This document shows positions 13,832 to 17,387 of a DNA stretch of 64,000 nt, piece by piece. The stretch is from Candidatus Latescibacterota bacterium (GTDB lineage: Bacteria > Latescibacterota > UBA2968 > UBA8231), in contig OZ242005.1 in NCBI GenBank assembly GCA_965204725.1, positions 352,001 to 416,000 on the forward strand, read 5' to 3'. The notes under the pieces are model-generated. The model made no database searches and was not told where the DNA came from. It saw nothing but the letters and a program-made list of their open reading frames with translations. Each line of letters begins with the position of its first letter. The first letter of the stretch is position 1. The translations under genes and the position numbers were made by a program.

Positions 13832-14920
13832 TTAGGAGCCTTTCAGGTGGGACGTGTTTATCAAAGGATGGAGATCGAGCATTAACACACGCTCGGCCAT
13901 TTCGCTGCTTGAAATGGTCTGATGCTTTTCGTGAAACGCCATCAGGCTAGGGAGACGCATCTCCTCTGGTATTAAGGAGTCCGGCCATATAGAGGCGAGC
14001 CAAAATTCGATTAGACGTAGTCGAGGCTCCTCGTTCTTCTCCGCTATATGGGCTATTGCTATACGACGTTTTTGCGATTCTGCAAACGCATTTTGCGGAC
14101 TAAAAAAGTCGTGGTAATGGTACAGGTGATAGCTCTGCGCTTTGGATGCAAAACGCATCTTATATCCATTCCGCATGAGGCGATAGGCCAAATCCCATCC
14201 TTCAGAGTGGGGTAGCTCTTCGTCAAACCCACCGACTTCCTCAAGAGCAACACGCGGCACCGAAGCATTGTGTGGATAAAATCCGCTCCAACCTATCGGC
14301 GAATCAGGCACTTTGTCAAAGAGTACTTGTACTTGGTCCTGCATTAATTTTAACTCCGGGAAGGGATACCCACCTTCTCGAGCCAATGGAGCGATCGTAT
14401 CGAAATCGGACTGTATCATAGCCTCGGTCACCCGAAACTCGTCTGGGTACGTCCGCATAATATGAGCAACCGAGGCCGGAGTGTCCTCCCCCGGAAGGCC
14501 GCCACGCGGGTCTTGGACGTACTCCAAGCAGGGCAAGCAGTACTGGAACCCGCTCGTTACGCCGTTGTAGCATTGGAATAGTTGCCAATGTTGAGCTAAC
14601 CAATCAGGCCCCGGTAGCGCGTCTCCATCTAAAAAAGCGACTACATCTCCTCGTGCTTCCGCTATACCGATGTTCCGCGCTCGACAGCGTCCTACATTGG
14701 CATTCAAGGGAATGATTTTTATGGGAATTTGCTCGTATTCACGTAGAAAATCGTCCGTTCCGTCCGTGCTGCCATCATCAACTACTATAACCTCAAACTG
14801 GCCTTCGGAGAATGTCTGAACAGCCAAGCCACTTAAAACAAGCTGCAATCGATCTCGCTGATTGTGTGCGGCGATGACGACAGAAATATCCATTGAACTA
14901 GCTACCTTATATACATTCAA
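13832..14920 (-). CDS. Glycosyltransferase family 2 (start may be 14893)
   Basis: ISVVIAAHN, VIVVDDGSTD, ARNIG, FLDGD, VGGFDE..EGWDLAYR. Confidence 0.92.
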   Translation of the reverse strand: MNVYKVASSMDISVVIAAHNQRDRLQLVLSGLAVQTFSEGQFEVIVVDDGSTDGTDDFLREYEQIPIKIIPLNANVGRCRARNIGIAEARGDVVAFLDGDALPGPDWLAQHWQLFQCYNGVTSGFQYCLPCLEYVQDPRGGLPGEDTPASVAHIMRTYPDEFRVTEAMIQSDFDTIAPLAREGGYPFPELKLMQDQVQVLFDKVPDSPIGWSGFYPHNASVPRVALEEVGGFDEELPHSEGWDLAYRLMRNGYKMRFASKAQSYHLYHYHDFFSPQNAFAESQKRRIAIAHIAEKNEEPRLRLIEFWLASIWPDSLIPEEMRLPSLMAFHEKHQTISSSEMAERVLMLDLHPLINTSHLKGS

Positions 14921-17387
14921 AGACCAAGCGGCACTCCTCCCTCAGAGCGTCCGGTCGGTGCATACGAGGCAAGCCGTTATCTGTCTCTTCATACACAATA
15001 ACTTGTGGCACTTCCTTGGCAGCAGAGTTTGAGCATACGACATGGAAGCAGTCCAAATGGCCAAAGAAAAAGTCAAAATACGGCTCGCTATTCTCCAAGA
15101 CCTTTTGCCGCAACGTCTCACTTTGCATATTAGCCTCCGTTAGAGCTGGAGTGCCGATACTGATACCGTGAAACTCCACGGGGATCCATCTCAGATCCGA
15201 GACAAAAATCTCAGCCCACGTGTGTCCGAACACCACTTCGTTATAGGTCCGGTTTTCGTACATCCTCGGACCCAGCGGGTTGACTGCTATGGCTCCAGTT
15301 TGTTCGCGAGCAGGTATTTTTAACAGGCGACAAAGGGCAATAAAAGTACGCGCCAATGTAATACAATGTCCGCCGTCATCTGTCAGTGCTTTTAGGGTGC
15401 TACACTGATAGCATTGACAACTATCTTTGGTCTTCTTGAAATGCTTGTTTTTGGTCAAGTAGTAGTATATCGAACGAGCTTTTTCTAGGTCGCTCGACGC
15501 TTCGTCCATGCCCACATCCTCCCAACAACGGCGGACGAGCGGATGTTCGGCCAAGGATTCATCAACGGTAGTATAGTGCTCGAACGCTTCGGGCGTGAGC
15601 ACTTCTGTTGCTCGTGTAGTACCCATACTTCTCGCATAAACAGTTAGTTCGCACACGTAAGAAAACGTATATGCCTCACCCGAGCTAAAATCACAAACCA
15701 CAGGATAGCCGTAGAAAAAACCCGCATGTGGCAAAAAGTGGTTCTGAATTTCCGCTGGCTGGCAAGACAGTAGCTTTATATCCTTCTGAAAATCAGTGGT
15801 TATGGGGTAAGGCAGAAATATCCGCGTATTGTGCGTTGTATTCTCGGCGGCAGACAAGGTGAAGGTATAGGTCAGGCGCAAGCACTGGTGGTCCATCGCC
15901 GGCTGAAGTGCGCCATTTTTTTTGTTAATGAAGAACGAACGCATCTCCTCACGCGCCTCGTAATCACACGCAAAAAAGCGAGCGTCGTTGTCGTAGAGCC
16001 AGTTCCACGAATCGCAGCGATCGTACCAGATGTCGTCCTGTTCTACTTCATGCGGCATCTGGCGCATTCGCCCGTTCTCGAGCATCGCTTCAACTTGCTC
16101 GTCGCGGAGCCGTGTGCTCAACGACAACTGCCGGGCAAAGTCGCGTTGGCTCATCTGGTAATGCGGGTCGAGCCGGCCTTCTTTAGCACGGCTCATCCAG
16201 TACCTATCGACTACATCCGCAACGCGGTTCGCGTCCTGCCATTCCGATATATCGACGGCAAAAGCACGGCATCGTCTAGCGAGTACCGCATAGTGATTTA
16301 ACAGTCCCTCTACACTTTGGATGAGAGAAGTTGATCGAATGAAGTCTCGGTAGCTTAGTTTGATCCCTAATCCCAAGGCTTGCAGACGGTCGATGAAATA
16401 CTCTTGCGTACCATTCGTGGGAAGTCCAATGACTGGTATGCCCTTGAACAGAGCTTGGTAGAAGAAACCGTGATCGCCTCCCCCGGCAAAGACGGCCGCG
16501 TGGGAGGCGGCCTGCGGCAAAAAACTCGGATCGACGATCTCGCCGTGCTCTATTGGGTCTATACGCACTCCAACAGGTGGAACCACCCACTGCTGAATCC
16601 CTTTCATTCCCAGCTTTTGCACGGCCTCTTGAATGGAGGGCCAATCGGCTCCCAACGTTCTGAGATCCCAATACACCCCCTCCCGCTTCACATCGCCTTG
16701 CTTCTCCACATCAAGCCCCTCAAGCAGCGGCCCGATGAAAAAGTAGTTAGCCGGCGTCTCCGGTCTCAGTGGATGAACCGTTGGAATATCGCAGAGCAGA
16801 TACAGTTCCCTAGAGACCGTCCCATAATTCCATCCTCGATTTGTGGTGCGTTTAATTATGTCCTCCCAAGTACGCACAGATTCAGGTGTGTGAATCGGGT
16901 AAGCGTATTCGGGCATAGTATAGGCCGATCTTATCCAAACTACATCAACTCCCTCTAATGCAGCAGCCAAGCGCAACGTGGGACGAGAATCTACGATAGC
17001 CAAGTCGGGCTTCAAGCGGTCAATTAGCACCCGCTCGGCTTCCACACTCTGATGGACGAATGAATCGCAGGCCGCTTCGTCTAAGTCAAAATCCAGAACT
17101 ACGCCCAAGTCTTGTATTGGCGTGGCGAGGTCGTGCAAAGGGAAGTCCGTTTGCCGGACTGGTTCGGCAACCGAGCCTGTGCCAGCAAACTCGACTTGGT
17201 ATCCTCGGCGGCGAAGTGCCTTACCCACCACCAAAGCACGATGCACAGAAGCACCATCAAAGCCGTGAAAAAAAATCAGTATGGAAGCTCGATCTCGTTT
17301 TAGACGACACGAGCGTTCCTTCTCCTCAAAGTATCTGATGACCTTGAAGAGGCCCACTGACACTTTGTGTCGCATCGCTTTGAACAT
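14907..17387 (-). CDS. GT-B glycosyltransferase-like domain fused to C-terminal transglutaminase-like domain
   Basis: N-term HRALVVGKALRRRGYQVEFA..KPDLAIVD..GIPVIGLP; C-term GHCITLARTFIALCRLLKIPAR, GHTWAEIFV, WIPVE. Confidence 0.8.
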   Translation of the reverse strand: MFKAMRHKVSVGLFKVIRYFEEKERSCRLKRDRASILIFFHGFDGASVHRALVVGKALRRRGYQVEFAGTGSVAEPVRQTDFPLHDLATPIQDLGVVLDFDLDEAACDSFVHQSVEAERVLIDRLKPDLAIVDSRPTLRLAAALEGVDVVWIRSAYTMPEYAYPIHTPESVRTWEDIIKRTTNRGWNYGTVSRELYLLCDIPTVHPLRPETPANYFFIGPLLEGLDVEKQGDVKREGVYWDLRTLGADWPSIQEAVQKLGMKGIQQWVVPPVGVRIDPIEHGEIVDPSFLPQAASHAAVFAGGGDHGFFYQALFKGIPVIGLPTNGTQEYFIDRLQALGLGIKLSYRDFIRSTSLIQSVEGLLNHYAVLARRCRAFAVDISEWQDANRVADVVDRYWMSRAKEGRLDPHYQMSQRDFARQLSLSTRLRDEQVEAMLENGRMRQMPHEVEQDDIWYDRCDSWNWLYDNDARFFACDYEAREEMRSFFINKKNGALQPAMDHQCLRLTYTFTLSAAENTTHNTRIFLPYPITTDFQKDIKLLSCQPAEIQNHFLPHAGFFYGYPVVCDFSSGEAYTFSYVCELTVYARSMGTTRATEVLTPEAFEHYTTVDESLAEHPLVRRCWEDVGMDEASSDLEKARSIYYYLTKNKHFKKTKDSCQCYQCSTLKALTDDGGHCITLARTFIALCRLLKIPAREQTGAIAVNPLGPRMYENRTYNEVVFGHTWAEIFVSDLRWIPVEFHGISIGTPALTEANMQSETLRQKVLENSEPYFDFFFGHLDCFHVVCSNSAAKEVPQVIVYEETDNGLPRMHRPDALREECRLVFECI

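Follow-up and report, generated by a model that had tools for sequence, protein, structure and literature searches.

What does a protein do that joins a glycosyltransferase-like half to a transglutaminase-like half, and on what does it act? The question is raised by a gene on the minus strand (14907..17387) of a 64,000-nt stretch of a Candidatus Latescibacterota genome (assembly GCA_965204725.1, contig OZ242005.1, positions 352,001 to 416,000). This whole stretch is called the window below, and coordinates refer to it unless another locus is named. The 826-residue product, P0001, is tentatively regarded here as one subunit of a cytoplasmic complex with the family GT2 glycosyltransferase encoded directly downstream, often accompanied by a tetratricopeptide-repeat (TPR) protein, that would glycosylate and process peptides or proteins. 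We infer the catalysis, the substrate and the order of the steps, and the reading as a whole is held to be possible rather than probable.

The open reading frame (ORF) of P0001 was translated from the window; it starts with ATG, stops with TAA and is uninterrupted over 826 aa. A preliminary description had given this ORF without a strand, together with the motifs GHC, GHTWAE, WIPVE and CQCYQC; the ORF is real, its strand is minus, and each motif was present as quoted. The three residues of the putative triad are Cys675 in GGHC (codon 15363-15365), His722 in GHTWAE (codon 15222-15224) and Glu738 in WIPVE (codon 15174-15176), and CQCYQC comprises residues 657-662 (15402-15419). When the window was searched with P0001 using tblastn, only the gene itself was matched, i.e. 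no second copy was found there. Because no hydrophobic segment was detected (maximum KD19 1.37), P0001 is probably cytoplasmic and soluble.

Four regions, all on the minus strand, were delineated. A GT1-family GT-B domain (residues ca. 30-400; 16188..17300) was assigned from Foldseek, phmmer searches of the PDB, motif comparison and the ratio of nonsynonymous to synonymous substitution rates (dN/dS); its donor-site motif is degenerate in the clade to which the window's copy belongs (the window clade). It is followed by a helical/beta-hairpin linker (residues 401-495; 15903..16187), defined by alignment and by the secondary structure of the model, which contains an invariant SWNWL. An Ig-like beta-sandwich (residues 496-590; 15618..15902), assigned from the models, a match to the N-domain of 3ISR and the predicted interface, contains an invariant GFFYGY loop and is a predicted contact site for the GT2. 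The transglutaminase-like core (residues 591-826; 14910..15617) was assigned from PF01841, the invariant residues and the alignment to TgpA.

AlphaFold2 was used to model full-length P0001 from a 33-row alignment (mean predicted local distance difference test score (pLDDT) 86.7, predicted template-modeling score (pTM) 0.61). When this model was compared to the PDB in Foldseek, the top 50 matches were all GT1-family GT-B enzymes (E 6e-15 to 3e-12; target TM-score up to 0.79), among them the kitacinnamycin glycosyltransferase (GT), UGT109A1, OleD, CalG1/2/4, YjiC, GtfD and SpnG; the GT-B domain matched PDB entries 6j31, 7vlb, 2iya and 6kqx with E of about 1e-14. By sequence, phmmer found GT1 enzymes of the PDB over residues ca. 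213-400, with 10zg the best (4.8e-5) and YjiC, OleD and CalG2 weaker; 3ISR was also weakly matched. The GT half scored under the cutoffs of the curated family models (PF00201, 16.0 bits against a cutoff of 19.5; the macrolide-GT model TIGR01426, 20.1 against 260; and PF06722), which its sister-clade paralogues pass. In the C-terminal half, in contrast, Pfam recognizes residues 629-738 as Transglut_core (PF01841), with 52.6 bits where 23 are required (E 6.5e-14). This half was also modeled separately (residues 442-826, 25-row alignment; pLDDT 91.7, pTM 0.91). In Foldseek, the model matched the Cytophaga hutchinsonii structure 3ISR, which is a putative cysteine protease (E 2e-11), and TgpA in its periplasmic domain (E 4e-5); weaker matches included TglA, PeiP, animal transglutaminases, arylamine N-acyl-transferases and PNGase. 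In a profile alignment to TgpA, Cys675 and His722 fell over the Cys and His of that protein and Glu738 fell over its Asp.

As modeled, then, P0001 is composed of a GT1-type GT-B domain, a linker, an Ig-like sandwich and a transglutaminase-like core. The domain order that had been proposed (GT-B, linker, transglutaminase-like core) was borne out, since both halves were modeled confidently and matched the expected folds; the per-domain AlphaFold and Foldseek check that had been suggested thus recovered both. The proposed Cys/His/Glu triad, with Glu where Asp is usual, was upheld by the TgpA alignment.

Cys675, His722 and Glu738 were invariant in two alignments (33 of 33 rows and 25 of 25 rows). 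Among 112 wider relatives aligned to the profile, the Cys was present in 104 and the His in 105, while the acid was Glu in 69 and Asp in 36; this interchange suggests a working triad, and the transglutaminase-like half is most likely catalytically competent. Outside the core, SWNWL (S460, W461, N462, W463, L464) was invariant in alignment A1 and has a related xxNW in the GT2-fused relatives described below; both it and the GFFYGY loop of the Ig-like domain were invariant or nearly so across both alignments. CQCYQC was found in all 12 window-clade rows of alignment A1 and in 4 of its 21 other rows. Judged by this distribution, it is a clade feature outside the catalytic core, perhaps a metal or disulfide site.

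A word-based search with P0001 yielded 99 homologous proteins, 47 at 71-100% identity (38 full length, 9 shorter) and 52 at 32-43%. Every homologue of at least 800 residues covered 96-100% of P0001; the homologues are fused and not, as had been raised as a refutation of the fusion, always two genes. A scan of genome contigs located 56 genomic loci, nearly all labeled Candidatus Latescibacterota, with a few in metagenome-assembled genomes (MAGs) labeled Gemmatimonadota or Planctomycetota. Several paralogous loci reside on single chromosomes (L014, L023, L042 and L044 in one assembly), and another assembly holds L001, L003, L013 and L053. There were also 33 shorter relatives, most of which are as similar to P0001 as the full-length groups are (74-100% identity, or about 40%); because many of these are on short contigs, they look like fragments and not like a standalone clade within Latescibacterota. 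A quick maximum-likelihood tree of 45 full-length copies comprised five clades. The stem branch of the window clade (13 rows) was long, at 1.24 substitutions per site, with an SH-like approximate likelihood-ratio test (SH-aLRT) value of 100. The MAG copies labeled Gemmatimonadota or Planctomycetota (L010, L020, L024, L046, L049, L051, L052, L054, L055) nested among Latescibacterota copies, and the proteins of L054 and L055 were identical, yet the two records carry different phylum labels. These observations suggest inconsistent taxonomy or binning rather than gene transfer.

The partner gene encodes a 362-aa GT2 glycosyltransferase (13832..14920, minus strand; PF00535, E 4.6e-27), whose DDGSTDGT and DGD motifs are intact and which has a helical extension at its C-terminus. 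Its start overlaps the stop of P0001 by 14 nt, or lies 13 nt past that stop if the ATG at 14893 is used. A GT2 gene came directly after the fusion gene in 51 of the 54 loci with room downstream; in two of the other three it was 4-7 kb off, and in one degraded locus there was none. The TPR protein (401 aa; 17399..18604, minus strand; TPR_12, E 8.7e-45) ends 11 nt before P0001. Of the 40 loci with room on both sides, 13 have a TPR gene immediately before the fusion gene and 11 have one immediately following the GT2 gene. The hydrophobicity scan that had been applied to P0001 found no hydrophobic segment in the GT2 or the TPR protein. Of the module's components, the intact glycosyltransferase is most likely the GT2.

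A complex of the C-half of P0001 (alignment A2) with the GT2 (alignment A3) was modeled and scored 0.71, compared to 0.00 for the best control. Three runs gave 0.71, 0.71 and 0.72, with at least 87% of contacts shared and a partner pLDDT of at least 86. The mark used to judge such scores was passed by 116 of 157 solved complexes and by 2 of 215 mismatched pairs; it is a rough guide here, own alignments having been used. Neither chain has a close homologue in the PDB, which makes it unlikely that the model passed through memory of a solved complex. The predicted interface comprises residues 522, 550, 552-557, 559-560, 598-604 and 786-809 of P0001, including the invariant G556, F557, Y559 and S786, and residues 275-280 and 315-353 of the GT2, i.e. 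its conserved C-terminal helical extension. The model supports binding of the GT2 to the C-half of P0001.

The same pairing recurs within single chains of other uncultured bacteria. A profile of the C-half was searched against 1.84 billion representative sequences and detected 5818 proteins at E of 1e-3 or less (80 at 1e-30 or less); many were 700-770 aa long, with the match beginning near residue 360. Thirty representatives were scanned against Pfam. Fusions of GT2 to Transglut_core accounted for 13 of these and fusions of a GT1-type domain for 5, one (P0203) had a GT4 N-terminus, one had a weak methyltransferase match, and 10 had the transglutaminase domain alone. In P0156 (1204 aa), a GT2, the module and a GT1-type domain are found in one chain. 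Over about 270 residues, the window's GT2 was 30% identical to the fused GT2 of P0221 (E 3e-28) and 34% identical to that of P0156 (E 2e-39). The GT2-fused relatives are metagenomic and carry automatic names such as "GT2 family glycosyltransferase"; in the ESM Atlas, their GT2 half alone was matched, with scores up to 0.84. Standalone representatives of the module (P0150, P0218, P0219; ca. 400-450 aa) occur in other phyla, and the ESM Atlas holds look-alike clusters of the standalone module (score 0.96), commonest in Pseudomonadota. That the module has been fused independently to GT2, GT1 and GT4 domains strongly suggests a mechanistic tie between the cysteine-enzyme step and glycosyl transfer, and the complex model adds to this evidence.

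The role of the GT1-like half itself is less plain. Canonical GT1 enzymes carry a C-terminal HGG...S/T...E...D/E-Q motif and an N-terminal loop with a catalytic His. In the donor region, YjiC aligned (phmmer) as SHGGMNSTMEA..YEQ; at this place the sister clades have GIGGIGS..Y(H/Q)AL..LDQE, whereas the window clade has GGGDHGF..YQAL..GTQE. In the first loop, SLAHTIRP of the sister clades stands against GASVHRAL of the window clade. By this comparison, the window clade lacks both the nucleotide-sugar motif and the N-terminal His loop; the loss is only relative, because the donor motif of the sister clades is already atypical. Precomputed GT domains of Pfam were present in 50 of 52 homologues from other clades and in none of the 47 at the level of the window clade. 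Pairwise dN/dS was calculated for 78 pairs inside the window clade and amounted to 0.24 for the N domain of the GT half, 0.21 for its C domain, 0.20 for the linker, 0.17 for the Ig-like domain and 0.15 for the transglutaminase core. The values of 0.20-0.24 indicate that the GT half is maintained by purifying selection and is not decaying. The suspicion that this half is divergent and may be inactive is plausible as far as the lost motif residues and the missing Pfam domain go, and the dN/dS values speak against reading it as a relic. Probably, the GT1-like domain of the window clade is a substrate-binding or scaffolding pseudo-glycosyltransferase, or one of altered donor specificity.

The foremost alternative starts from the same half. 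It holds that P0001 is a bifunctional tailoring enzyme whose GT1-like domain is active on an unusual donor or acceptor, that this small-molecule or peptide substrate then undergoes a further reaction at the transglutaminase-like domain, and that the GT2 attaches another sugar independently. An intact, confidently modeled GT-B fold, the purifying selection just described, the invariance of N-domain residues including R50, P136, T137, D200 and H205 in all clades, and sister clades that reach Pfam GT thresholds would all be accounted for. The window clade, however, has replaced the LDQ sugar-binding pair, the phosphate-loop Ser and the AH(T)xRP loop; its GT half scores under the curated cutoffs, and its long stem branch indicates a functional shift. 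We consider this alternative unlikely, though worth keeping in mind. Of the earlier proposal of a bifunctional tailoring enzyme, the two-part fusion stands, and its stand-alone character does not: P0001 appears as one subunit beside a translationally linked GT2 and, usually, a TPR protein.

Under the favored reading of a P0001-GT2 complex, P0001 would be the core subunit of a module with the downstream GT2 and, usually, the TPR protein. The C-half, with its intact Cys675-His722-Glu738 triad, would most likely be an active cysteine enzyme (a hydrolase or an acyl-transferase) and would dock the C-terminal helical extension of the GT2. The GT1-like domain would serve as a scaffold or substrate-binding pseudo-enzyme or would have altered specificity, and sugar transfer would be carried out by the intact GT2. 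The substrates would be ribosomal peptides or proteins of the same genomic island, and to these the surroundings of the gene are relevant.

The island lies at ca. 14-25 kb of the window (about 13800-25300) and has a GC content of 43-53%, compared to about 62% elsewhere. It contains a minus-strand operon that encodes, in order, a 196-aa protein, a redoxin, a 66-aa peptide, an NHL propeller, a permease, the TPR protein, P0001 and the GT2. The first gene (23053..23643) has a weak FMN_bind match, and its family (c11) recurs in 13 loci. The second (22460..23056) encodes a membrane-anchored TlpA/ResA-like redoxin of 198 aa (AhpC-TSA, 1.1e-13; Redoxin; NCBIfam ResA, 4.4e-10, under its cutoff). The third (22165..22365), located immediately before the propeller gene, has a strong AGGAGG ribosome-binding site ahead of it and encodes 66 aa: a Sec-type leader ending in ANA is followed by a 38-aa core with 6 Cys. 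It looks like a gene for a small disulfide-rich secreted peptide, and this peptide is the candidate substrate in the window. The secreted NHL/six-bladed beta-propeller protein (331 aa; 21068..22063; Pfam NHL and DUF5128) has an N-terminal hydrophobic leader. The permease (798 aa; 18604..21000; Pfam MacB_PCD and FtsX) is of the duplicated FtsX/MacB type (ADOP/DarB-like), with NCBIfam matches to TIGR03434 (4.7e-85) and DarB (2.2e-38) that are both under the cutoffs; Pfam detected no peptidase or ATPase domain in it, and no ATPase gene lies beside it.

A sigma-54 type -24/-12 promoter, AGGCACGGTTTTTGCA, was located at 23790..23805 on the minus strand, 147 nt upstream of the first gene, with one mismatch to TGGCAC-N5-TTGCW. 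Because the pattern is not enriched at 2 mismatches in the whole window (30 found, 32.9 expected), the case for this promoter rests on the position of the site and on the neighboring activator gene. The latter (24236..25279, plus strand) is divergent and encodes a 347-aa sigma-54-dependent activator (Sigma54_activat, 1.6e-64; HTH_8). It has AAA+ and helix-turn-helix domains only and lacks a sensory domain, while the activators of related loci are 450-1075 aa long; its shortness could reflect truncation or a PspF-like mode of regulation in trans. A repeat search found three to four CGTAT-N4-ATACG inverted repeats, 21 nt apart, at 23932..24010, i.e. 130-220 nt upstream of the promoter; they are probably binding sites of the divergent activator. 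The operon would be transcribed from the sigma-54 promoter under the adjacent activator, and the cytoplasm would be where the 66-aa precursor receives its sugar and is cleaved or transamidated; export, and oxidation by the redoxin, would follow.

The island has rluD/lspA on one side and a conserved 242-aa gene on the other. L004 carries a smaller version of it at this chromosomal position, and in L040 all that is left of the fusion gene there is a piece spanning residues 338-498, so islands at the site are subject to gain, loss and degradation. PADLOC returned no match for P0001, the GT2, the propeller or the 196-aa protein and only a generic TPR match for the TPR protein; an anti-phage defense role was considered and set aside. 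PADLOC has no model for the fusion protein. A second stretch of lower GC content (43025-49880, plus strand) encodes an HlyD-like adaptor, an ABC ATPase, a second MacB/FtsX-type permease and a 619-aa protein with an extracytoplasmic function (ECF) sigma N-terminus. A perfect TGGCAC-N5-TTGCT is found at 43131-43146, within the annotated start of the HlyD-like ORF.

In related loci, the cargo varies around a constant pair of fusion and GT2 genes and includes redoxins, an A24-like membrane peptidase, DUF4159, ABC-2 permeases and DUF1573. There are also families of proteins of ca. 90-150 aa with a conserved leader (e.g. ...GLGLGWVISALTGVAILLGA.EA.A) and hypervariable Cys-rich ends; the C-terminal cores have 6-8 Cys. 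One such family, c8, is found in L001, L002, L005, L007, L009, L011, L013-L019 and L032, another, c55, in L039, L041 and L043, and similar small proteins in L025, L030 and L035. They are often multicopy within a locus, and some of their genes are preceded by sigma-54 promoters. Behind the gene of each such leader-bearing protein comes one for an FG-GAP propeller protein of roughly 715 aa with an FlgD-Ig-like tail, and genes for an A24 (prepilin-peptidase-like) membrane protein and two redoxins accompany them. Small ORFs that combine a hydrophobic leader with four or more Cys toward the C-terminus were sought in a heuristic scan; 34 of 57 loci had at least one, for a total of 66 ORFs (58 on the plus strand), and a reversed-sequence control was positive in 14 loci (15 ORFs).

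In a clade that contains L037, L045, L047, L050 and L054, the loci are bordered only by regulatory genes, namely two for large sigma-54 activators and one each for an AraC regulator and a histidine kinase, and here a different small ORF is conserved directly upstream of the fusion gene. Its product, for which no Pfam match was obtained, consists of a Sec-type leader and about 40 residues that are acidic, lack Cys and finish with P-x-x-x-E at the C-terminus. Seven of the eight loci with upstream sequence had it at E of 1e-13 or less (L037:9650-9898; L045:~9730-9971; L054:6979-7197; L052:~160-410; L047, as a tandem duplicate at 7874-8092 and 8201-8419; also L050 and L055); in the eighth (L051:1752-2015), the match was weak (E 2.9) and the ending was the same.

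Ribosomal peptides or proteins are held to be the most likely substrates because of the leader-bearing peptide neighbors, the TPR partner, the protein-directed Ig-like and transglutaminase modules, and the absence of polysaccharide assembly genes among the island proteins and recurrent neighbor families scanned; an Ig-like plus transglutaminase module and a TPR partner are typical of protein-directed enzymes. Several points weigh against the P0001-GT2 complex as a peptide-modifying machine. The link to the peptides is by neighborhood only, the heuristic fires in the control as well (the 14 loci given above), and 23 of the 57 loci had no leader-plus-Cys-rich ORF in that scan. Since the candidate peptides carry Sec-type leaders, modification would have to precede export, and such leaders make a cytoplasmic protease unneeded for leader removal. 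The 29 matches of the GT2 in the PDB (E of 0.01 or less) are generic GT2 enzymes, none of which is named as a peptide (glycocin) glycosyltransferase. The TPR gene was non-adjacent in 16 of the 40 loci with room on both sides. The sister clades, too, lack the His at the HGG position and the ribose-position Glu of the canonical GT1 motif. Finally, the score of the predicted complex is the model's own confidence.

The GT2 matches also lend themselves to another explanation, namely that the glycosyltransferases build a saccharide on a lipid or polymer of the cell envelope, that the transglutaminase-like domain is an amidase or acyl-transferase, and that the secreted neighbors are unrelated. The GT2 resembles polysaccharide and lipid-carrier enzymes (chondroitin synthase, 1.1e-17; PglI; ArnC; DPM synthase; NCBIfam EpsD, 4.8e-42, under its cutoff), and N-acyl-transferases of the transglutaminase fold are among the weak Foldseek matches. 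The genes expected of such a pathway (flippase, polymerase, priming phosphotransferase, sugar-nucleotide genes) were found neither among the 8 island proteins nor among the recurrent neighbor families, and P0001, the GT2 and the TPR protein all lack membrane segments. In addition, the Ig-like/transglutaminase module and the TPR protein are typical of protein-directed enzymes, and there is a clade whose modules have no neighbors other than regulators and a small ORF. This envelope explanation is judged improbable.

That same regulator-flanked clade, with its small conserved secreted peptide, and the sigma-54 activator genes within 10 kb in 23 of the 56 related loci are arguments for a regulatory or quality-control enzyme that deamidates or deglycosylates (PNGase-like) a signaling peptide or regulator and so links glycosylation to sigma-54/histidine-kinase circuits. 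Regulators are expected beside any regulated operon, however, and the window locus has export and redox genes, not kinases. PNGase shares the fold as a weak match (rank 50, E 0.1), but beyond the fold there is no specific similarity to it; a regulatory role is given little credence. An assembly, read-through or frameshift artefact joining two genes, for which nothing speaks beyond the existence of some shorter proteins, can practically be dismissed, as an unbroken ORF is seen both in the window and in 45 full-length copies, which come from complete chromosomes and from many independent MAGs, homologues of at least 800 residues span nearly all of P0001, the short matches behave as fragments would (mostly at full-length identity levels, many on short contigs), the linker is itself conserved with its invariant SWNWL, and homologues consistently split at the linker were not seen.

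Returning to the P0001-GT2 complex, a more far-reaching version of it may be put forward as speculation: the GT2, the module and the GT1-like domain might form an undescribed peptide or protein maturation machine. In the boldest form, the Cys-His-Glu domain would be no protease but would form a thioester with a Gln or Glu side chain and join it to a sugar-borne amine, or undo such a linkage; this chemistry would amount to a novel type of amide-linked glycosylation of proteins. This version, which seems rather doubtful at present, builds on the recurrent GT fusions, the sigma-54-controlled expansion of loci and the paired families of leader-bearing Cys-rich peptides. Should the neighboring hypervariable secreted peptides prove to be the substrates, the locus would represent a new family of glycopeptide natural products and new enzymology in an uncultured phylum, and a peptide substrate would give a concrete function to one branch of the mostly uncharacterized bacterial transglutaminase-like superfamily. 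The system is open to direct testing by heterologous co-expression.

How P0001 and its operon compare with known systems is considered last. GT1 enzymes (OleD, YjiC, CalG1-4, the kitacinnamycin GT) have the same two-Rossmann GT-B fold of about 400 residues (TM-score 0.6-0.8) and a weak sequence likeness to P0001 in the C-terminal donor-binding half. They are only 13-21% identical to P0001, however, with scores under cutoffs and with donor motif residues replaced in the window clade, and they lack the 430-residue transglutaminase module that P0001 carries. The structure 3ISR and TgpA of Pseudomonas aeruginosa (6G49) share the Ig-like sandwich followed by a transglutaminase core and the Cys and His positions. 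They differ in their low identity to P0001 (10-15%), in the Glu for Asp, the SWNWL linker and the GT fusion or partner of P0001, and in location, the TgpA domain being periplasmic and P0001 predicted to be cytoplasmic.

Leader peptidases of lasso-peptide B (B2) systems are likewise cysteine enzymes of the transglutaminase fold encoded beside a small peptide gene, and an analogy to them had been drawn in the preliminary description. It was not sustained: no lasso cyclase and no RiPP recognition element (RRE)/PqqD-like domain was present in the 8 island proteins scanned (Pfam, NCBIfam) or in 20 recurrent neighbor families. The peptide of the window, moreover, has a Sec-type leader and 6 Cys, and an Ig-like domain and glycosyltransferases are present.

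Glycocin clusters of the sublancin type (SunA/SunS/BdbA-B/SunT) have a double-glycine leader and an exporter with a C39 peptidase. The gene content of the window operon is comparable, with a Cys-rich peptide, a GT2, a thiol-disulfide oxidoreductase and an exporter. Yet the leader of the window peptide is Sec-type rather than double-glycine and the exporter is of the FtsX/MacB type without a C39 peptidase, and for these reasons the operon, as read from its genes, fails the defining features of a glycocin cluster. Its GT2 shows no specific similarity to peptide glycosyltransferases among the 29 PDB matches; the operon further adds a GT1-like/transglutaminase subunit, a TPR protein and sigma-54 control, and it belongs to a Gram-negative candidate phylum.

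In GtfA-GtfB pairs, an active glycosyltransferase and an inactive GT-B co-factor glycosylate adhesins in the cytoplasm before export. The concept is shared, namely that selection preserves a degenerate GT-B domain next to an active glycosyltransferase whose protein substrates are secreted later; GtfA-GtfB are GT4-like and have no transglutaminase module, whereas the window system is GT1-like plus GT2. The impression that the fusion is not recognizable from characterized proteins was confirmed, no characterized counterpart being found in the PDB, the curated family models or the literature; neither these sources nor the full-text literature described the architecture or the wider class of GT-fused transglutaminase modules. 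The GT-transglutaminase architecture is not described in the portions of PMC8195603 and PMC3482391 that were available. Both domains of P0001 come from known superfamilies; it is their combination that is new, not the fold.

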